From a virus: a stretch of 32,287 nucleotides of DNA. Shown here one piece after another: positions 8,114-29,961 of the stretch (position 1 is its first letter; the number at the start of each line of letters is the position of its first letter). Made by a program: the position numbers and the translations under genes. The notes beneath the pieces are model-generated. The model was not told the origin of the DNA. It searched no databases and was given only the letters and a program-made list of their open reading frames with translations. The stretch lies in IMG/VR virus record IMGVR_UViG_3300030493_000405; one strand, written 5' to 3'.

Positions 8114-8872
8114 ATGAAGGTAATCACGATCTCCAACCAGAAGGGGGGGACAGGAAAATCGACGAGCGCAGTCAACACTGCTGCCTACCTGGCTCTCAAA
8201 GGCAAGAAGGTTCTTTTGGTCGATCTCGATCCTCAAGGGTCATCATCGACCCATCTGGGCATAAATAAGCTGCCTCTTGAAAAGACCATGTACGAAGCTC
8301 TGATGAAAGACCTCCCTCTCTCGGACGTCATTTTACCAACTTCCATTGCCGGCCTGGATATAGCTCCCACTAACACCAGGCTTGCCAAGGCAGAGATAGA
8401 GCTGGTTGCCAAAAAGCTTGGTCGAGAGTTCGTCCTTGCAAAGACGCTGGAATCTCTTGGCGGCTATGATTATGTGATCATAGATACAGCTCCGACACTC
8501 GGGTTCTTGACCCTGAACGCCCTGGTAGCCTGCGATACTATCTTGGTCCCCATCCAGACTGAGTTCTTTGCCCTGGAAGGGCTGGCGACATTGGCAGATC
8601 TGGTGACAGAGATCCATGAAGGTCTGAATCACAAGATTGAACGCCGCTACCTTCTCACCATGTTCGATGCCCGGACCAATCTGGCAAAGGAGGTCGCCAA
8701 GCAGATGAGGGATGTTTTTGGCGATTCAGTCTTCAAGACAGTTATACCCAAGAGCATAAAGCTTGCAGAAGCTCCGAGTCGTGGTGTGCCCATCTGCTCC
8801 TACGATCCTGAGACTCCCGGCGCTAAAGCCTATTCCGATCTGGCTGACGAGGTGATCGCTGATGGGAATTGA
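8114..8872 (+). CDS. parA: ParA/Soj-family partition ATPase
   Basis: Deviant Walker A KGGTGKST, VDLDPQG, YDYVIIDTAP, LVPIQTEFFALEG and LAEAPS motifs; no N-terminal HTH (252 aa). Confidence 0.97.
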   Translation: MKVITISNQKGGTGKSTSAVNTAAYLALKGKKVLLVDLDPQGSSSTHLGINKLPLEKTMYEALMKDLPLSDVILPTSIAGLDIAPTNTRLAKAEIELVAKKLGREFVLAKTLESLGGYDYVIIDTAPTLGFLTLNALVACDTILVPIQTEFFALEGLATLADLVTEIHEGLNHKIERRYLLTMFDARTNLAKEVAKQMRDVFGDSVFKTVIPKSIKLAEAPSRGVPICSYDPETPGAKAYSDLADEVIADGN

Positions 8873-15471: not shown

Positions 15472-16041
15472 CTACAGCTTAGCCAGCATCTCCCTGAACT
15501 TATCCTCTACTACCCCAACTCCTGCATGGTCATAGTGGGCAATGCTTGCGATGGCCCTGTGGCCTGTGACCCTCTGGATCTCATCATAGGACCACTCGGT
15601 TTCAATGAGCTGGGTAATCAGGTGATGCCTGAAAGAGTGGCAAGAGACGAACTTGTTTATCCCGGCTTTATCAGCGAACCTCTGGGGCCACCTCTTAAGG
15701 GTGGAATATGAAGCCTTGAAGATCGGCTCATCATGGCCTATCTTGTTCCGGGCGATGTACTGCTGGAGAAGGACCAGAGTGGTATCATCGAGGAAGATCT
15801 TCCTCCGGTCATTATCAGGTGCCTTCTTTGACCTCTTCTCTATATGGGTCCAGAGGCATTTCTCCCTGATATCCACGTCCCTGGGTGTGATCCTCTTTAT
15901 CTCACCCATCCGCCGGCCGGTCCTGGCCAGGAGCCGGATGAAAAGGTGGGCGGTCTCGTAGGGGACCGAGGCCTCAAGGATCTTGGATACATCTTCTTTG
16001 GTCAGGTAGTCTCTGTAGTATGCGTTGCCTCTTCGTACCAT
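15472..16041 (-). CDS. Compact tyrosine recombinase/integrase (catalytic domain only, 189 aa)
   Basis: TGRRMGE (R), EKR (K), HSFRH (HxxR), TGH (H) and HYDH (Y) give a complete catalytic set; GGAGG RBS upstream. Confidence 0.92.
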   Translation of the reverse strand: MVRRGNAYYRDYLTKEDVSKILEASVPYETAHLFIRLLARTGRRMGEIKRITPRDVDIREKCLWTHIEKRSKKAPDNDRRKIFLDDTTLVLLQQYIARNKIGHDEPIFKASYSTLKRWPQRFADKAGINKFVSCHSFRHHLITQLIETEWSYDEIQRVTGHRAIASIAHYDHAGVGVVEDKFREMLAKL

Positions 16042-21392: not shown

Positions 21393-21986
21393 ATGACTAA
21401 GACACCAAATGACCAGTGCAAGACTTGCAAATCACCCCACCTTCATGATTATGAGCGCTGGTACTTTGTTGAAAAGCTCAGCCCCAGGAAAATGAGTGCC
21501 AGGGCAATGCAGGAATTTCAAGAAAATATCGGTAAGGATTCCTTTTTCAACCATTTTAAGTACCACTCGCAGGTTCCGGCTGAGGTCCAGAAGCGGTACC
21601 AAGAACAACAAGCCTCAATCAAAGAAACTGCTGGCAAGGTCGTTGATGAGCTGGCCGTCTTGGACCAGCTAATCCAGGATGAGATGGAAACTCATGGCCT
21701 GGTCAAAGCCTGGGTCTCTGAACTCTTCAGGCCGAGGGTTCCGCACATCGATAAAAGTACAGAATTGCCCTACATTCCCATGTCTCTTGTCTCCATGGAT
21801 CAGGGCACGATAGCAGAGATTCGACAGCTCATAAAGACCAAGTCTGACCTGATGAATGGCGACCTCAAGGGCACTGAGGCGAAGATGATCACAGAAGCGA
21901 TGAAGAAGGTGCATGAACACAGAAAGCAGCGGCTCAATGGACCTGGCGGAGGCTTACGAGGAGCTGGCTTTGGAGGTAAGAAGTGA
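21393..21986 (+). CDS. Probable terminase small subunit
   Basis: Lies directly upstream of and overlaps terL; N-terminal CKTC..H / H..YH putative Zn-HTH region, then helices. Call is largely positional. Confidence 0.55.
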   Translation: MTKTPNDQCKTCKSPHLHDYERWYFVEKLSPRKMSARAMQEFQENIGKDSFFNHFKYHSQVPAEVQKRYQEQQASIKETAGKVVDELAVLDQLIQDEMETHGLVKAWVSELFRPRVPHIDKSTELPYIPMSLVSMDQGTIAEIRQLIKTKSDLMNGDLKGTEAKMITEAMKKVHEHRKQRLNGPGGGLRGAGFGGKK

Positions 21987-23466
21987 TCCCGTCTGGTATG
22001 TCGAGACATTCCTTGACTCCCACCCCTGGACTGTTCAAGCCCAAATCCTTGAAGCCATCCGAGACTACAAGCGTATCGTTGTCCGGTCCTGTCATGGCAT
22101 AGGCAAGTCCTGGCTCGCTGCCCAGGTCATCTTATGGTTCCTCATTGCTTTTTATCCCTCAATCGTTCTCTCTACAGCTCCCACTTTCAGACAGGTCGAG
22201 AAGCTGGTCTGGAAGGAAGTCAGAGCCAGCTTCAACAGGGCGAGTTTCAAAATAGGCCACCTCCTGCCCAAGGCTCCCGAACTCCAGATCCAGCAAGACC
22301 AATGGTATGGTGTGGGCCTCTCGACCAATGACCCTAACAGGTTTCAGGGGTTCCACGAAGAGAATATCCTGGTGGTCATAGATGAAGGCCCGGGTGTGGA
22401 CGAGGACATCCATGAAGCCGTAAACGGCGTGATGACCTCCAAGAATGCTAAACTCTTCATGACCGGCAATCCCACGGCCACCACAGGAACATTCTTTAAC
22501 GCCTTTAACTCCGATCTTTGGAAGACCTTCCATGTCGCAGCCTGGGACACCCCGAACTTCACCGAGTACGGAATAGTCGAGGCAGACATAGCGTCTGGTG
22601 CCTGGAAGGATAAGCTCGGAGATAAACCGCTGGTCAACCCCAACCTCATCACTCCAGGCTGGGCCGCAGAAATGTACCAGCTCTGGGGACCGGATTCCTC
22701 AGCTTACCAGGTCCGTGTTGGAGGCAACTTCCCTAAGAAGGGCCTTGATACCATTATTCCTTATGACTATGTTGAACGGGCAATAGAACGCTATGCTGAT
22801 CTCGAAGACCAGGGCGTACTTGATGACTTAGACGGCCTGGAACCTAGAACCCTGGGCGTAGACGTTGCCAGGTTCGGAGATGATGACTCTGTCCTGGCCC
22901 CAAGGATTGGCAATATTATCCTGCCACTCGAGTATTACAACGGCCTGGATACCATGGAGCTGACAGGAAAGATCGTCCAGATCATGGACCGGCTGAGCCT
23001 CGATCATGTGAACGTAGACGAACCAGGCCTTGGCGGTGGTGTAGAGGACAGACTTAGAGAACTGGATTATGATGTCACTGGCGTAAATACCGGCAACAGC
23101 CCCAAGGACCCAACCAAATATTTCAATCTCAGGGCTGAACTCTGGGCCACTTTCAGGGACAAAATCCACCCCAACCCCAGAATTAACGCTAATCCTTACG
23201 CCCTTCCTGAAGACGATAGGCTAAGGGCTGATCTCTGCGCCCCCAAGTACAAGAATCTCTCTGATGGTCGCATTCAGTTGGAACGTAAGGAGGACACCAA
23301 GAAGAGACTCAGGCGCTCTCCCGATGCTGGAGATGCCGTAATTCTTGCTAGTGCTAATTCTGAGGATATTGATAATGATGGCGCTGTTGTTGATTTTGAT
23401 GTTATGGAACAAGAGAGCCGATGGAAAGGCAGCGGGAGACGGAAAGGAAAAGGAAGGAGGAGGTAA
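21937..23466 (+). CDS. terL: Terminase large subunit
   Basis: Walker A VRSCHGIGKS, Walker B VVIDEG, coupling motif MTGNP, nuclease LGVDVARFGDDDSV and RSPDAGDA. Confidence 0.95.
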   Translation: MDLAEAYEELALEVRSDPVWYVETFLDSHPWTVQAQILEAIRDYKRIVVRSCHGIGKSWLAAQVILWFLIAFYPSIVLSTAPTFRQVEKLVWKEVRASFNRASFKIGHLLPKAPELQIQQDQWYGVGLSTNDPNRFQGFHEENILVVIDEGPGVDEDIHEAVNGVMTSKNAKLFMTGNPTATTGTFFNAFNSDLWKTFHVAAWDTPNFTEYGIVEADIASGAWKDKLGDKPLVNPNLITPGWAAEMYQLWGPDSSAYQVRVGGNFPKKGLDTIIPYDYVERAIERYADLEDQGVLDDLDGLEPRTLGVDVARFGDDDSVLAPRIGNIILPLEYYNGLDTMELTGKIVQIMDRLSLDHVNVDEPGLGGGVEDRLRELDYDVTGVNTGNSPKDPTKYFNLRAELWATFRDKIHPNPRINANPYALPEDDRLRADLCAPKYKNLSDGRIQLERKEDTKKRLRRSPDAGDAVILASANSEDIDNDGAVVDFDVMEQESRWKGSGRRKGKGRRR

Positions 23467-23469
23467 TGC

Positions 23470-24969
23470 GTGAAGCGGATTAAGAACGTATTTGACCAGG
23501 TTGGCAGGACCGGCCTACAGCAATACGGTGGCTATATCTATGAGGATTGGTTCCCGCCACTCGTAGGAGCTGCAGGTGCCAGGATCTATAGGATGATGGG
23601 CGATAACTCGCCCGTCCTATATGGCATGCGGTACGCTGTGGATATGATCCTGTCCAAGGTGCCTGTCAAGGTCACCGAGGCCAGCAGCTGCAGGGCAGAT
23701 ATTGAGGCTAAAGCCTTTGTGGATTCTCTTTTTAAGGATATGAATCCCTCCTGGCCAGAGACCAAATCCGAAATCTTAACAGATATCGTATTTGGCTGGG
23801 CCTACTTCGAGCAGCTTTTCAAGAAGCGTGAGGGCCTTGACCAGGACGACCCCCTGAGACGCAGCCAGTATGACGATGGCCTTATCGGTTGGAGGTCCTG
23901 GGAGATCAGGTCTCAGGAGTCCCTGGATCACTGGGTATTCGATGAGGAGACAGGCGAGCTTCTGGGCATGGTCCAGTCCCCGCCTCCAGACTTCCAGCCC
24001 CGGTTCGTCCCATATGCCAAGTCTTTGCTTTTCAGGATTCGATCTTCAAAGAACAACCCAGAGGGCGAGAGCCTCTTCCGTGGCTGCTACCGGGCCTGGT
24101 ACAATGTCACCAATGCCGAGGACATAGAGGGCATAGGCATGGAGCGGGACCTTTGCGGCCTGCCAGTCCTTTACGCTCCCGAGAAAGTGGTCAGTGGCAA
24201 GGATGCCAAATCCAGACAGGCAAAACAGAAGTGTATCAAGCTCATCACCGGCCTTAAGAGGGACGAATCCGAGGGCGTTCTTCTCCCCTCTACCAGGGAC
24301 AAATACGGCAACCGCGAGTACGAGCTGACACTTCTGGCCAGCGCCGGCACCAGGCAGTTCAATATCAACCAGACCATCACCAGGTACACCAGAGACATGG
24401 CTATGACCCTCCTGGCTGACTTCCTGCTCCTGGGCAGCCAGAAGTATGGTTCCAACGCCCTGGCCGTGACCAAGAACGAGCTTTTCCAGGCAGCTCTCCA
24501 GACCATCTGCGACCGGATGGCGGGCGTGATCAACTCCCAGGCCATACCCCTGGTCATATCCCTGAATCCCTTTGATGACATAACCGGCCTGCCCAAGGTC
24601 TCATTTGGCACTGTTGAGACCCCAGACCTGGCCCAGTTAGGAGAGTTCATCAGCAACCTTGCAGGCTCCAAGCAGAACCTGTTCGCTGATGATGTAGAGC
24701 TTGAGAACTATCTGAGAAGAGCTGCAGGCCTGCCTTCCGTCCCGCCTAAGCCTAACCAACTACCTACGCCTCTACCTAATTCTCTACCTGCAGGTGGCCA
24801 GTCCCAGGCTCAGGCCCAACCAGGCCCGGAGGCACAGCCCCAGGATGACCAGGCTCAAGCCATGGGCGAGCTGCAGAAGGCTTTCGACACGGGCCACTAC
24901 TCGGCTAAGGAAATTCAAGACCTGGCCCATCTCCTCCTCCGCAGGCCCGAGGGGAGGCTGATAGCTTGA
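23470..24969 (+). CDS. Portal protein (DUF935/Mu gp29-like) with a Pro/Gln-rich tail
   Basis: 499 aa after terL; GRTGL..YGG.I.E, FGWAYFEQ, NNPEGESLFRGCYRAW, GMERDLCGLP and QAIPLVISLN. Confidence 0.9.
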   Translation: MKRIKNVFDQVGRTGLQQYGGYIYEDWFPPLVGAAGARIYRMMGDNSPVLYGMRYAVDMILSKVPVKVTEASSCRADIEAKAFVDSLFKDMNPSWPETKSEILTDIVFGWAYFEQLFKKREGLDQDDPLRRSQYDDGLIGWRSWEIRSQESLDHWVFDEETGELLGMVQSPPPDFQPRFVPYAKSLLFRIRSSKNNPEGESLFRGCYRAWYNVTNAEDIEGIGMERDLCGLPVLYAPEKVVSGKDAKSRQAKQKCIKLITGLKRDESEGVLLPSTRDKYGNREYELTLLASAGTRQFNINQTITRYTRDMAMTLLADFLLLGSQKYGSNALAVTKNELFQAALQTICDRMAGVINSQAIPLVISLNPFDDITGLPKVSFGTVETPDLAQLGEFISNLAGSKQNLFADDVELENYLRRAAGLPSVPPKPNQLPTPLPNSLPAGGQSQAQAQPGPEAQPQDDQAQAMGELQKAFDTGHYSAKEIQDLAHLLLRRPEGRLIA

Positions 24970-27329
24970 TCTCGGATAGCAGGAGCGAGGAAGCCAGGAA
25001 GGCAGTCGTGCCCGGCTCTGGCCCAGCTGGTGCCCTCATAGCCTTCATAGCAGCCTCACCCTCAGAGCTCGAAGGTATAAGGCGTCTCCCATTTGTAGGA
25101 CAGGCGGGACGTGTATTCAAGGAACATTACTTGGATCCTCTGGGCCTGACTCGTGACCAGGTCATCCTGGCCCATGTGGTCCCTGAGGTGCTGAAGTCGG
25201 ATGGGCGGATAAGAGGCCCAAGCCAGGCCGAGATAGATGCTCACCTTCCGTCTCTCCTGAAAGCCCTGGACGATTCAAAGCCCCAGGTCATAATTGCCCT
25301 TGGCCGGGTGGCTAAAGATGCCCTCGGAGATCGGGCCGCCCTGGTCCTGCCTCACCCCCTGGCCATAATCTCGAAGGGTGACAGGGGAGAAGTGGCCCGA
25401 AAGCTCAAACAGATCAAGGGCCTGGTCCAAAAGGAGAGGTCGGGCTCAGCCCAACCCTTTCATCGAATCATAAAGGGCTACTGCACGCTCCACAACTCCA
25501 AGGGTGGGACGTTCGTGGTCAATGCTCCCGGCCTGGACTGCAAGGGCTCTGACAAGTCTTCTAATGTCAGTAGTGCCTCTGGTGTGCCTGGTTCAGACCA
25601 CTCGATTATACCTTCTGGTAGGCCCAATGTGATAAGACTCTGGCTCAGATCCCACCCTGATGAACGGGCCGTGGTCAGAAGCATAAAAAACGGCAAGGCT
25701 GAGGTCAGACTGGCTGGCAGTGGTGACCTTCTGGGCACATTCTCGACCAAAGATCTGCCTGAGGGCCTGGCTGAGGGTGACCGCCTCTATCCAGTAAGCA
25801 GTGGCCTGGTTATAATTAAGCCAAGATCAGATAATATAAAGCGACACACTCACGAAGCTTACCACACTCCGGAAGAGAACGCCCTGAATCACGAGCCTCG
25901 GCTTGAAGACGATACCACCTCCTGGCTTGCCAGAGAGATGAGCCCTGAGGCGAAAGTCTCAGTTACTCACATAGACTCCCAGACCAAAGAGGCCATCCTG
26001 ACCTCAGAGGCCCGGTCCTGGCAGGCCCGGATACCTCTAAACCTCTTGCCTGACCCTCAGGAAGGGGACGTCATTTACGGGACTTCTGGCAAGCTTAACA
26101 ACAAGAGGACCGGAGAATCTACAGATTCAGCACCTCTGATAGACTATATCCTCCACAACACCGAGGCCCCCAGCTACTTCAAGAACCTGATTAAGCCCTA
26201 TGGAGAGAGCGGCCCAGACATAAGTGGAGTGACCAAATCTCTTGAAGAGGACGAGCCTCATAGTGCTGTTGCTTTACAATCGTATTATCAAAACTGGCAG
26301 ACCTATGTACCCAAGACCGGCAAGGGCAGATTTGTTTTACAAGCGCATTGGCGAGGTCTTAATAGAGAAGAGGCGAACCTCAGCCACGAGGAGCTTCTGA
26401 AAACAGACAACAATGTACACTGTGACCTCCGCTTAGAGATCGATGGAGAGACGTTATGGGGCTTCACAATCTTTGAAGGTAAGGCATCTGACATTCGTGA
26501 GACGACAGACGGCGCCGGAATCCTGAGCCTAAAGCCTGCAGACAGCCTACAAGGAGCATACAAGCTTCCTCAACCCTATGCCTGGCTCGACATAGCCAAA
26601 GAAAAGCCATATGTCATCGAGCCTACAAGTGCAGGTGCGACCTCCAAATCCTGGGCAGCATTCTTCCAGCTAGATGCAGGTGAATACGAGCTCTCTTATG
26701 CTCGCGAATATGCCAGAGAGCTTTTCATGCATGGCGCAAAGCTGAAGGGAAGGCTATTGATTCAGTGTGCCCCTGTGGGCAGTCGCCGTGTGTGGATTAT
26801 TAACCGCCCTGAAGACCAGACTCCCTACACAGCTAACCATAAGCTTGAGGATGTGGAGGCTGATGTTAAGGCCAGGGGCCAAAAATATCTTGTCTGGGCA
26901 GACAAGCCTGGAGAATCCCCACAGGTCATAAATACTTCTTCTGATATACAGAAGGGCCAAGGCTACGCAACTATTCTAAAAGCTGATGAGGAAAAGCGCA
27001 TAGTATGCGGCGTAGTCCTTGAGCCTGAGTCCTTTGATTTACAAGGGCATCGGCTTACCGCTGATGAGATTAAGCGGTCTGGTGAAGAATACCTAAAGAA
27101 ATCCAGGGTATTTTTCGATAGACACCGCAAGCCCGCCAAAGCTGAGCTTGTAAAATTCTGGTTTGTAGATAAAGACCAGATGGTATACGGCCAGCTAGTC
27201 AAGGCCAATTCCTGGGTAATTTGTGTTCATGTCTCAGATGATAGGATATGGGACAGGATCAAGCGCGGTGAATACACTGGATTCTCGGTAGGAGGTAGAG
27301 GTGTCCTCATACCCGTCAGGATTGCCTAA
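24966..27329 (+). CDS. Multidomain prohead protease: UDG-like, two DUF3006-like repeats, LigD 3'-phosphoesterase-like and XkdF-type serine protease domains
   Basis: PFVGQAG..LGLTRDQV..PQVIIALG..LPHP (UDG family 4/5 fold); LPEGLAEGD and LPDPQEGD; FVLQAH..HCDLRLE..DAGEY..GAKLKGR (PE); KADEEKRIVCGVVLEP..DLQG..RH..W..IKRGEYTGFSVGG (XkdF). Confidence 0.88.
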   Translation: MISDSRSEEARKAVVPGSGPAGALIAFIAASPSELEGIRRLPFVGQAGRVFKEHYLDPLGLTRDQVILAHVVPEVLKSDGRIRGPSQAEIDAHLPSLLKALDDSKPQVIIALGRVAKDALGDRAALVLPHPLAIISKGDRGEVARKLKQIKGLVQKERSGSAQPFHRIIKGYCTLHNSKGGTFVVNAPGLDCKGSDKSSNVSSASGVPGSDHSIIPSGRPNVIRLWLRSHPDERAVVRSIKNGKAEVRLAGSGDLLGTFSTKDLPEGLAEGDRLYPVSSGLVIIKPRSDNIKRHTHEAYHTPEENALNHEPRLEDDTTSWLAREMSPEAKVSVTHIDSQTKEAILTSEARSWQARIPLNLLPDPQEGDVIYGTSGKLNNKRTGESTDSAPLIDYILHNTEAPSYFKNLIKPYGESGPDISGVTKSLEEDEPHSAVALQSYYQNWQTYVPKTGKGRFVLQAHWRGLNREEANLSHEELLKTDNNVHCDLRLEIDGETLWGFTIFEGKASDIRETTDGAGILSLKPADSLQGAYKLPQPYAWLDIAKEKPYVIEPTSAGATSKSWAAFFQLDAGEYELSYAREYARELFMHGAKLKGRLLIQCAPVGSRRVWIINRPEDQTPYTANHKLEDVEADVKARGQKYLVWADKPGESPQVINTSSDIQKGQGYATILKADEEKRIVCGVVLEPESFDLQGHRLTADEIKRSGEEYLKKSRVFFDRHRKPAKAELVKFWFVDKDQMVYGQLVKANSWVICVHVSDDRIWDRIKRGEYTGFSVGGRGVLIPVRIA

Positions 27330-28221
27330 GCAAGACCTGACCAGGACGCATTGGAACGAGATCTCTTTCGTTCCCCGAGGTGCGAACAATAAGATTTATT
27401 TAATATTCAAAGGAGCTGATGAAATGGGACTCGAAGAAGATATCTTGAGGGCCATCCTGGGCACACCCCTAGACAAGGAAGACCAGGTAGATGGCGTCCT
27501 CAAGGAGCACAAGATAGAGGGCGATGCCGCCGCTGTGCTCAAGGCCGTAGTTAAGCTGACCAAGGCATTTGAGGATGTCCTTCCAAAGGATGTGCCAAGT
27601 GTCATAGCCAAGTGTGCCGGTTATCCGGCCCCGGTGCCAGAGAAGAAGGATGAAACGAATGAGGAGGCTGGGACTGGCAAGAAACCTCTGTACGGCTACC
27701 CTATCAAGAAGTCTGTGGATGGTGAGTATGACCTCTCAGACGTGCCGCCTGAGATGCAGCCCATCATAAAGGAGCTTTGGACTGAGAGAGAGGCGCGTCA
27801 GATAGAGAAGGAAGAGCGCCAGAAGCTCCAGGACGCTGCAATAACCAAGGAGCTGGAAGAAGAGATCACCAAGGAACTGAGCATGCTGCCTGTTGAGACC
27901 AGGCCCTTTGCCCAGGTTCTCAAGCAGTTCAAGGAACTTGACCCCGACGGCTACAAGGCAATCATGCCAGTCCTCAAGGCCGCCAGCAAGGGACTGGCCA
28001 AGAGTGAGCTATTCAAGACCCATGGCAGGGCCGGTGCTGGTAGCATGACGGGCAGTGCCTGGGATCGGCTCGTAGGCATTGCCAAGGGCATGGTAGCCAA
28101 GGGAGCTGAGGATATGACCCTTGAAGAGGCCATCAACAAGGCCATGGACGAGCATCCGGAGCTGGTTGAACAATACGAGGCCGAGCATGCCGCCCAGGTC
28201 CGGGCAGTGGGGATGGTCTAG
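27322..28221 (+). CDS. Capsid scaffolding protein (start TTG 27322 or GTG 27301)
   Basis: Lies between the protease and capsid genes; helical and charged; N-terminal EISFVPRGAN motif; C-terminal TLEEAINKAMDEHPELVEQY capsid-binding-like helix. Confidence 0.72.
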   Translation: MPKQDLTRTHWNEISFVPRGANNKIYLIFKGADEMGLEEDILRAILGTPLDKEDQVDGVLKEHKIEGDAAAVLKAVVKLTKAFEDVLPKDVPSVIAKCAGYPAPVPEKKDETNEEAGTGKKPLYGYPIKKSVDGEYDLSDVPPEMQPIIKELWTEREARQIEKEERQKLQDAAITKELEEEITKELSMLPVETRPFAQVLKQFKELDPDGYKAIMPVLKAASKGLAKSELFKTHGRAGAGSMTGSAWDRLVGIAKGMVAKGAEDMTLEEAINKAMDEHPELVEQYEAEHAAQVRAVGMV

Positions 28222-28959
28222 ATGGCCACTGAAAAGCCTGTCCAGACACTCTCTGGCCTCGCTGGTGAGGACCTCTCTTCCAAGCAGTCCCTGGCCATGA
28301 AGTACAATTCATCTGGTAATATCGTGGTCTGCGGTGCAGGAGAGACCAGCATAGGCATACTCCAGGAGCCTGATGTGGAGGGCAGGGTCGTCAGCGTAAT
28401 GGTCCTTGGAGAGAGCCCGGCTATATACGGCGGGTCTGTGACCGCTGGGGTGAACCTGGCCGTTGGCTCTGGCGGGAAGCTGGTAACTGCTGCTGCCGGT
28501 GATTCTGTCGTGGCATATGCCAAAGAGTCTGGCAACCTCAATGAGCAGCACACCGTTATGCTCTTGCCCCGTCTCTATAGCGGTGCCAGGGGCGAGACCA
28601 TACTTCAGTTCCACCTCAAGAATACCAGCATTGCAGATGGTGACCTGCTCACGGATATCATCCTGGGGTTTGCTGGCACTATCAAGAAGTTCATGGCCAT
28701 GGTCAATGATCCAGTCACGACCGCGGCCAAGGCCTCGACTCTCCACGTTGAGATCGAGGACACTCCTCTGACTGGCGGAGTTCTGAGCCTGGCCAGTGCA
28801 GGCATGACCCCACTTGGCAAGGTGATCAATGCCACTGCAATCACTGCGGCCAACGTTTTCACTGCCACTCAGAAGATCAGCATAGTGGCGGCTTCTACCA
28901 CTGCTTTCATCGAGGGAGAGACCACCCTCACTATGGTCATTGAGCCCGCGGTGGCTTGA
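28222..28959 (+). CDS. Capsid cement/decoration protein (DUF2190-like) with an extra C-terminal beta domain
   Basis: GAGETSIGILQEP..VSVMVLG..GGSVTAG..GSGGKLVTAAAGDSVVAYA.E pattern; position just before the MCP. Confidence 0.72.
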   Translation: MATEKPVQTLSGLAGEDLSSKQSLAMKYNSSGNIVVCGAGETSIGILQEPDVEGRVVSVMVLGESPAIYGGSVTAGVNLAVGSGGKLVTAAAGDSVVAYAKESGNLNEQHTVMLLPRLYSGARGETILQFHLKNTSIADGDLLTDIILGFAGTIKKFMAMVNDPVTTAAKASTLHVEIEDTPLTGGVLSLASAGMTPLGKVINATAITAANVFTATQKISIVAASTTAFIEGETTLTMVIEPAVA

Positions 28960-28980: not shown

Positions 28981-29961
28981 ATGCCAAATCCAACAAGAGG
29001 CGACCTGTATGTTAATAAGCTGCTTGGCAACTTCGCCGTCGGCTGGGTCCAATCGCAGAATGTCTACATAGCAGGCAAGGTGTTCACAAACATACCTGTG
29101 GATGACAAGACCGGCAACTACGGCGAGTACAACCGTGCGGACTGGATGAGAGATGAGGCCGAAGAGAGGGCCCCAGGCAACGAGTCCGCTGGTGGTGGAT
29201 GGGATATAGACAACTCAGCAGAGTACATCTGCAGACGCATCTCATACCACTTCGATGTGGACAATGAGAAGCTTGCCTCCACTCAGAAGCCCTTCAACCT
29301 GAAGAAGGATGGCACAAGGTTCGTTTCCCAGAAGCTGCTCATCAACAGGGAGAGGAAGTTTGCCAACAGGTACTTCGGCGCCAGCAAAGGCTGGAACGAT
29401 AGGGCTGGAGTGGCTGGGACACCCAGCACGAACCAGTTCAAGCAGTTCAACAAGGACGGCAGCAAGCCAGCAGATACCATAATGGCCTACATAGATGAGA
29501 TCGCTGGCTATGGTTTCAAGCCTAATAAGATAACCTCCTCGCCAGACGTGTACCGTTGCCTCTGCAACCATTCTGACGTCCTGAGCAGGATCCAGTACAG
29601 CCAGAAAGGCATCGTCACTGCTGACCTGCTGGCAGAGCTCTTTGGGGTTGAAGAGTTCCTGGTCGCCAGGGCCGTAGCCAATACGGCGCCCAAGGGAGCT
29701 GCAGAGAATACAAACTTCATCTTCCAGAATGGTCTCTTGATCACCTACTCGGACCCGAACCCAACGATTGAGTCACCTACAGCCGGGGCGACATTCTCCT
29801 GGCGGGCCTATGCAGGGGCCTCTGACCTGGGATCCAGGATAAAGGAGTTCCCAATCGATGAGAAGGACTGCGTGAGGATCGAGGGCGATATGGCCTCGGA
29901 CCAGAAGATGGTCTCAGGCATCCTCGGGACATTCATGGCCGGTGTGCTTGCCGCGGCATAA
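28981..29961 (+). CDS. Major capsid protein (HK97 fold, lambda gpE-like family)
   Basis: 326 aa; strong GGAGGTGA RBS; YIAGKVF..IPV, EERAPG, FKPNKI, L.NHSDVLSRIQYSQKGIVT.DLLAELFGV. Confidence 0.92.
   Translation: MPNPTRGDLYVNKLLGNFAVGWVQSQNVYIAGKVFTNIPVDDKTGNYGEYNRADWMRDEAEERAPGNESAGGGWDIDNSAEYICRRISYHFDVDNEKLASTQKPFNLKKDGTRFVSQKLLINRERKFANRYFGASKGWNDRAGVAGTPSTNQFKQFNKDGSKPADTIMAYIDEIAGYGFKPNKITSSPDVYRCLCNHSDVLSRIQYSQKGIVTADLLAELFGVEEFLVARAVANTAPKGAAENTNFIFQNGLLITYSDPNPTIESPTAGATFSWRAYAGASDLGSRIKEFPIDEKDCVRIEGDMASDQKMVSGILGTFMAGVLAAA

Follow-up and report, generated by a model that had tools for sequence, protein, structure and literature searches.

The internal proteins (IPs) and Alt of phage T4 and the Dar proteins of phage P1 are loaded into the procapsid, trimmed by the head protease and injected against host defences. 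Each is the product of a separate gene and reaches the head by means of a short targeting peptide or an adaptor protein; we know of no LigD-type or uracil-DNA glycosylase (UDG)-type enzyme among them that is fused to the protease. For other phages and for conjugative elements, it has been proposed that multi-enzyme "polyvalent proteins" enter the particle, are processed by a peptidase within the chain and reach the cell together with the DNA (Iyer, Burroughs, Anand, de Souza, and Aravind, 2017; PMC5512222). Here we describe a polyprotein (P0001) encoded in the viral record IMGVR_UViG_3300030493_000405, a stretch of 32,287 nucleotides referred to below as the window, in which a capsid-maturation protease of the XkdF type (Peptidase_S78_2) is joined to a UDG-like domain and a LigD-type 3'-phosphoesterase (PE) module. 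As with the T4 and P1 proteins, its enzyme domains would be loaded into the procapsid, released by the protease and injected.

As defined in PMC5512222, a polyvalent protein has at least two effector-type domains in one chain and belongs to a portal-terminase phage. The window polyprotein has the same makeup: several unrelated enzyme domains share its chain, its gene lies among the virion genes of such a phage, and 2H phosphoesterase and methylase domains, known from polyvalent proteins, also occur in its relatives. In other respects the two differ. XkdF, UDG, LigD and DNA ligase are absent from the text of PMC5512222, where the peptidase is a zincin-like metallopeptidase and the anchors are MuF or portal domains, whereas here the serine protease of capsid maturation is itself the anchor and DNA end repair is the putative task of the cargo. 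The canonical XkdF protease-scaffold, gp09 of Bacillus phage vB_BtS_B83 (398 aa), belongs to the same Pfam family and also lies upstream of a capsid gene, but in it a short N-terminal segment, core and ~250-aa tail form one chain, with the capsid gene next. In the window, by contrast, the core is the last part of a cargo polyprotein, and the segment is encoded at the start of the following gene. A survey of jumbo phages names XkdF solely as a head peptidase (PMC7824862), and in open-access papers and bioRxiv preprints we found no description of the present architecture. Virion-cargo polyproteins as a general idea have already been published (PMC5512222); a two-gene XkdF anchor carrying a LigD-type PE and a UDG-like domain without an iron-sulfur (Fe-S) cluster is apparently undescribed.

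The polyprotein gene begins with a TTG codon that overlaps the portal stop codon (TTGA), with GGAGG 8 nt upstream. The operon order is large terminase subunit (TerL), Mu-type portal, polyprotein, p306 (a conserved partner gene), scaffold and major capsid protein (Table 1). The initial annotation had assigned the gene to the protease slot between portal and scaffold; its position in the head module is borne out, while direct adjacency to the scaffold gene is not, as p306 intervenes. Pfam and PHROG matches of the head-module proteins include no protease family besides the XkdF core of the polyprotein. As the only recognisable protease in the head module, this core must therefore act in the procapsid, and the fused domains would be carried along. 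We accordingly read the polyprotein as a head-module protein with a C-terminal XkdF protease and N-terminal passenger enzymes, which would be co-assembled with p306 and whose cargo would be freed in the head and leave with the DNA. We place the probability of this reading at roughly 0.6.

The C-terminal domain matches Pfam PF14550 with an E-value of 4e-19 and 69.3 bits (cut-off 24), and head-maturation-protease PHROGs match it as well. Together with the conserved His720 and Ser774, this agrees with the initial annotation, in which the polyprotein ended in an XkdF-type protease. The ILK|AD stretch before the core, which bears on a separately proposed type of cleavage site (hydrophobic-x-K|small), lies inside the Pfam protease domain. 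At its other end, the core stops 8 residues short of the polyprotein end and is without the EVSLV.RGAN segment of the family; neither P0001 nor 174 of the 176 polyproteins have this segment in its more general form EVSLV.(R/K)(G/P)AN. A subgroup of eight cores from other loci (L019, L049, L056, L059, L063, L071, L076, and L077) has an internal insert of ~25 aa and, besides the p306 segment, a C-terminal extension of ~80 aa ending in MP(K/R)V.(F/Y)(V/I)(D/E)L.

A segment of this kind is found at the start of p306. The N-terminal segment of the window protein reads ...THWNEISFVPRGANNKIYLIFK, and the motif (I/V)S(L/F)V.(R/K)(G/P)AN is present in 59 of 68 p306 homologues. Residues 3-34 of B83 gp09 align with the segment (hhalign probability 51%, E 1.6e-4), as does the start of the gene that follows a short XkdF gene in Rhizobium phage RHph_TM16. 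One relative of the polyprotein, P0037, has the XkdF core and then the segment in a single chain (residues 902-1073, with the segment at 1041-1073; E 3e-7, probability 93%), an order that is the same as the gene order in the window. Because P0037 is a natural fusion of both, we link the products of the polyprotein core and p306. The similarity of p306 to B83 gp09 and to RHph_TM16 gp143 is confined to the N-terminal segment in BLASTP and hhalign comparisons, so that only the first ~40 residues of p306 resemble known proteins (namely, the XkdF N-terminal segment) and the other ~265 are without known likeness. The protein matches no Pfam family, its PHROG matches have no assigned function, and in the ESM Atlas it matches unnamed viral clusters only.

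In the deposited genome of RHph_TM16 (L084:4974-6660), the short XkdF gene is annotated as "DNA methyltransferase/prohead protease," and the overlapping next gene, which opens with the segment motif, as "ribonuclease E/G family"; both annotations look misleading. We also considered whether a frameshift or readthrough joins the polyprotein to p306. This was ruled out: the two genes stand in all three possible relative frames (34, 14, and 12 loci), and every p306 copy has a start codon of its own, which in the window is GTG with AGGAGG 5 nt before it.

For prediction of a complex, the XkdF core (31-row alignment) was combined with p306 residues 1-95 (31 rows) in three runs and three controls. 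The score was 0.83 in the three runs vs. 0.00 for the best control, with a predicted local distance difference test (pLDDT) value of 56 for the partner; in the benchmark of this score, the mark was attained by 58 of 80 solved complexes and by 2 of 110 mismatched pairs. The three runs share at least 75% of contacts, which place p306 residues 8-28 against core residues 62-66 and 115-130, the strands bearing His720 and Ser774. The protease core is thus predicted to be incomplete alone, with the conserved segment that opens p306 docking on the catalytic strands. More tentatively, the two genes may form one protease, whose core would be inactive or untethered until the N-terminal segment of p306 inserts by the catalytic His and Ser, the same contact activating the protease and recruiting exchangeable cargo into the procapsid.

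The PE module, a conserved unit of ~225 aa, falls below threshold for Pfam LigD_N (PF13298; E 0.057, 14 bits vs. a cut-off of 31.1), as does that of a relative, P0025 (18.8 bits). A sequence-profile search of the PDB gave a marginal match only (5dmp, E 0.26), and for this reason a fold search was needed. An AlphaFold (AF2) model of aa 427-675, built from a 40-sequence alignment, had a pLDDT of 92.9, and the top seven Foldseek matches to it are all LigD PE structures (E 5e-7 to 1.5e-4); no other fold matches it significantly. In VIA-align the model aligns with 3p43 with a Z-score of 13.5 and a root-mean-square deviation (rmsd) of 2.4 Å (123/124 residues); the six PE entries span Z 9.3-13.5, far above the best unrelated chain (Z 3.4). 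Judged by this model, the LigD 3'-phosphoesterase fold is unambiguous. The HxDxR motif aligns with that of 5dmp, and the LigD-PE-like domain with H..H-x-D-x-R that had been seen in the sequence is thereby recovered, with His461, His485, Asp487, and Arg489 as the set of metal and phosphate ligands. Among 216 non-redundant relatives, His461 is kept in 214, and His485, Asp487, and Arg489, as well as Lys533 and Trp540, in all 216.

Compared with the PE domains of LigD and non-homologous end joining (PDB 3n9b, 3p43, 3p4h, and 5dmp), the polyprotein module has the same fold (Z 10.7-13.5, with 22-26% identity in the structural alignment) and the same His..His-x-Asp-x-Arg set, and its relatives show a similar pairing with an ATP-dependent ligase. 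It differs in an extra N-terminal helix, a C-terminal extension of ~55 aa and an insert of ~19 aa between the two His residues, besides scoring below the LigD_N cut-off. Also unlike LigD, the window polyprotein has neither an archaeo-eukaryotic primase (AEP) polymerase domain nor a ligase, and it is encoded by a viral gene within a head module.

Evidence for the UDG-like domain comes directly from sequence matches. Pfam PF03167 matches aa 16-135 (E 8.5e-14, 52.3 bits vs. a curated cut-off of 24.3), and the best sequence matches among known structures are family-4 UDGs (4zbx, E 1.3e-10), which upholds the UDG-fold domain that the initial annotation had placed at about 25000-25430. With the PE and XkdF assignments, Pfam and structure matches agree with the domain composition proposed there. 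In common with family-4 UDGs (PDB 4zbx and 1ui0; UdgX 6ajo), the domain has a PFVG.AG loop and the motif-B His-Pro, here His130-Pro in LPHP (His in 61 and Pro in 63 of 63 relatives). It is shorter than they are (~140 aa vs. ~190-200 aa), has an added, family-specific GD(S/R)GEV.RK motif after motif B, and lacks their Fe-S cysteines. The domain begins past the N-terminal Cys pair, and 53 of the 63 relatives have no or one Cys in it; because of this count we regard the domain as having no Fe-S cluster. The UDG-like domains of the polyprotein relatives form a distinct clade within the UDG superfamily, as judged by sequence. The UDG fold of aa 16-135 is certain on these grounds, whereas glycosylase activity is not. 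UDG starts base-excision repair, and that role had been suggested for the polyprotein too; the fold stands, but the role is not secure because the domain is without the family-4 Glu, Asn, and Fe-S cysteines.

The polyprotein is a member of a large family of metagenomic proteins, and its design is common among uncultured phages. At 50%-identity clustering, 317 cluster representatives have the PE module, and almost all are long multidomain proteins or fragments. In 176 proteins collected and mapped by domain, the usual order is a small nucleotidyltransferase (NTase)-like N-domain, the adenylation and oligonucleotide-binding (OB) domains of an ATP-dependent ligase, an optional UDG, PE, and XkdF. 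A Pfam census of the cargo in 38 long relatives detected the ATP-dependent ligase in 37 and XkdF in 26, followed by methyltransferases (14), UDG (10), metallo-beta-lactamase (MBL)-fold domains (9), D12-class DNA methylase (3), 2H phosphoesterase (3), and an Acb1-like domain (1). The N-domain of the family, ~200 aa long (P0007 residues 1-200) and absent from the window, has a GS...D.D pattern typical of Pol-beta-type nucleotidyltransferases, and Pfam NTP_transf_2 matches one member.

The window polyprotein has no NTase and no ligase, its UDG-like domain is at the extreme N-terminus, and it contains a private insert; by comparison with its relatives, it is a derived form from which the ligase and NTase were lost. 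P0003, which is 92% identical, lacks the entire PE module (P0001 aa 429-649) through a clean in-frame deletion whose flanks read ...LEE and E(S/E)P(Q/R)VIN. Cargo modules are thus gained and lost without disturbing the protease. The added ligase, NTase, methylases, 2H phosphoesterases, and Acb1-like domain on the same anchor fit the idea of protease-towed cargo.

Genomic context was compared across 80 IMG/VR viral contigs that encode the PE module, in 60 of which an XkdF core was detected. All 60 of these loci carry head genes homologous to those of the window, and the commonest order is portal, polyprotein, p306, scaffold, capsid, and a 138-aa protein. Of the 20 loci with no detected core, the three that were sampled (L058, L065, and L081) are all head modules too, the first two with divergent protease domains at the polyprotein end. 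Fusions mainly outside head operons would have refuted the initial reading, and this is not what the loci show. Among genomes of named species, the PE module is present in metagenome-assembled genomes (MAGs) of Methanothrix, Dehalococcoides, Chloroflexota, and Leptospira; the loci from Dehalococcoides or Chloroflexota genomes (L086 and L087) are prophage-like. The closest relative in this set, with 59% identity in the PE module, is on an 8.5-kb contig (L085) binned with a Methanothrix sp. MAG. Its locus is fully syntenic (portal, a polyprotein with N-terminal domain, ligase, UDG, PE and XkdF, then p306, scaffold, and capsid), and on the basis of binning an archaeal host is possible for this clade.

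From what the domains are, how their catalytic residues are conserved, the shared gene order, the exchange of cargo modules and the docking prediction, we infer a sequence of encapsidation, cleavage and ejection, with substrates suggested by the enzymes themselves. The polyprotein and p306 would form a two-chain protease complex that joins the scaffold and capsid protein in the procapsid; encapsidation of the polyprotein is likely. The protease would then cut the scaffold, itself and the linkers, leaving the passenger enzymes free inside the head. As injected internal proteins do, and as is proposed for the polyvalent proteins of PMC5512222, these enzymes would exit along with the DNA when a cell is infected. 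In the new cell, the PE domain (Mn-dependent by analogy) could strip 3'-phosphates or other 3' blocks where the incoming genome is broken; damaged bases could be bound or processed by the UDG-like domain. Most relatives have, in the same chain, a ligase and a small NTase that would complete an end-healing and sealing kit; the window copy has no ligase, and sealing would therefore need that of the host. For ejection with the DNA and a repair or counter-defence role at entry, we see a chance that is close to even but somewhat short of it.

A number of observations weigh against the reading of the polyprotein as injected repair cargo. Motif A of the UDG-like domain reads AASPS in the window, without the Glu of the family-4 form GE(A/G)PG, and Glu occupies this column in only 1 of 63 relatives. 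The column of the uracil-reading Asn has Asn in 30 of the 63 and Tyr in 20, and His (His70) in the window and its close kin. In the PE module, the position that appears, by its place in the sequence, to correspond to LigD His84 lies in K-L-P-Q-P-Y-A-W, with Gln in 168 of 216 relatives; the second-shell catalytic His and Tyr of LigD PE are His84 and Tyr88 (Pseudomonas LigD numbering), and Lys533 and Trp540 are candidates for occupying their positions. Searches of the window with the N-terminal domain, ligase and OB segments of the family (tblastn) found no ligase or NTase elsewhere in it. The predicted complex of the core and p306 may reflect the model rebuilding the intramolecular fold of single-chain proteases, a caveat that arises because such single-chain relatives exist, and the prediction shows complementarity rather than binding in the cell, fitting a structural strand or a substrate-like plug alike. 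No conserved recoding joins the polyprotein to p306, since the relative frame varies between loci. Fusion to the protease is not obligatory, because in at least one relative (L081:2829-8901) an NTase-ligase-PE polyprotein comes after the portal, and the head-maturation protease (406 aa) is then encoded by a gene of its own, ahead of that for the capsid protein. Finally, the PE module occurs in none of 50,697 deposited phage genomes in GenBank, where only XkdF domains match.

As the main rival explanation, the enzymes could take part in quality control coupled to packaging, cleaning nicks, 3' blocks, and odd bases in the producing cell before or during packaging; the fusion would then matter only for timing and location, and the enzymes would have no part in the next infection. 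A late head-module gene directly after the portal suits this explanation, and so does the cargo of most relatives, a set for sealing nicks and breaks (ligase, PE, and NTase), as nicks or branches in the DNA disturb packaging motors. Yet the Acb1-like domain, 2H phosphoesterases, and DNA methylases of some relatives make sense only in a newly infected cell, and cytoplasmic enzymes gain nothing from a tie to a protease that acts inside the shell, so we consider such a role unlikely.

Alternatively, the UDG-like and PE-like domains could be non-catalytic and act as DNA-binding internal head proteins that keep the end of the genome in place or in order near the portal, in the manner of SPP1 gp7 and other MuF-type minor head proteins, whose genes are frequently found at this site. 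The UDG-like domain lacks the Glu, the Fe-S cluster and, in the window lineage, the Asn; the PE domain has no obvious His84 equivalent and is dispensable in P0003, points that favour a structural role. That role is hard to reconcile with the His-His-Asp-Arg set, which is (nearly) invariant across 216 diverse sequences and is joined by Lys533 and Trp540; conservation of the ligands is so high that we favour catalysis for the PE domain. The motif-B His of the UDG-like domain is likewise kept, and the partner ligase domains of relatives reach E 1.6e-53 against Pfam, which together make DNA anchoring quite improbable. There is next to no chance that the gene is an artefact, produced by an assembly or sequencing error that merged separate genes or by chance domain matches: dozens of independent metagenome contigs show the fusion in this order, the domain statistics are far beyond chance, and a protein identical over all 787 aa is recorded in the protein database, possibly from the window's own sequence. 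The recorded protein and the recurrence across contigs refute this explanation.

Should the polyprotein indeed be encapsidated and injected cargo, DNA end-healing enzymes would travel in the particles of many uncultured phages, among them some associated with Chloroflexota, Clostridia and, possibly, Methanothrix, and would be ready at genome entry. They would form a new type of counter-measure, made in advance, to nucleases of the host or to damage of the incoming DNA. The protease core and its partner segment would be a natural, modular and swappable loader of arbitrary enzymes into phage heads; should the two-gene protease prove correct, its cargo would be a UDG-like domain and a LigD-type PE here, and a full ligase, NTase, methylase, or kit against cyclic-oligonucleotide-based antiphage signalling (CBASS) elsewhere. 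The loss of the PE module in P0003 suggests that cargo is exchangeable without harm to head assembly, which is of practical interest for enzyme packaging in capsids. Virion biology would also gain members of the LigD-PE and UDG superfamilies, in the form of the distinct and strongly conserved sequence variants of this family.

Table 1. Features of the polyprotein gene and the surrounding head module, in window coordinates. Residue numbers refer to the polyprotein unless p306 is named.
Feature	Position	Strand	Residues (aa)	Remarks
Large terminase subunit (TerL)	21913..23466	+		
Mu-type portal protein	23470..24969	+		
Polyprotein gene (P0001)	24966..27329	+		Single uninterrupted open reading frame, 787 aa / 787 codons
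UDG-superfamily domain	24996..25400	+	~11-145	Pfam and UDG-structure sequence matches
Lineage-specific insert	25401..26243	+	146-426	281 aa
Small beta-rich unit 1 (repeat 1 of the initial annotation)	25659..25814	+	~232-283	Weak structural hint
Small beta-rich unit 2 (repeat 2 of the initial annotation)	25956..26153	+	~331-396	Unconfirmed
Conserved PE module	26244..26915	+	427-650	Fold core aa 453-619, nt 26322-26822
PE residue His461	26346-8	+	461	
PE residue His485	26418-20	+	485	
PE residue Asp487	26424-6	+	487	
PE residue Arg489	26430-2	+	489	
XkdF-type (Peptidase_S78_2) prohead serine protease core	26970..27302	+	669-779	
Protease residue His720	27123-5	+	720	Invariant in 31 aligned cores
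Protease residue Ser774	27285-7	+	774	Invariant in 31 aligned cores
p306, conserved partner gene	27301..28221	+		306 aa, no known family; overlaps polyprotein end by 29 nt
Protease-type segment EISFVPRGAN	27358..27387	+	p306 20-29	
Head scaffolding protein	28222..28959	+		phrog_673
Major capsid protein	28981..29961	+		phrog_1005

Between the UDG-like domain and the PE module, the only relative found for the insert (aa 146-426) is P0003. Two DUF3006-like repeats had been proposed within it, and they are unconfirmed by the present analysis. DUF3006 (Pfam PF11213) gave no Pfam match in the polyprotein, in a search where weak matches may have been filtered out. The two units are not alike: BLASTP finds no similarity between them, and 430 of the 2000 shuffled comparisons reached their Smith-Waterman score of 27. 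With a pLDDT of 43, the insert is modelled unreliably by AF2. The sole hint comes from the ESM Atlas and concerns one unit only, as aa 233-294 match a DUF3006 cluster structurally with a template-modelling (TM) score of 0.66 over 60 residues.

Upstream of the head module, the window encodes an ArdC-like anti-restriction protein (1391-2365; phrog_7245, E 1.4e-76), a ParA-like partition ATPase (8114-8872), and a small tyrosine recombinase of 189 aa (15472-16041). With its ArdC-like, ParA, and tyrosine recombinase genes, the window looks like a phage-plasmid.

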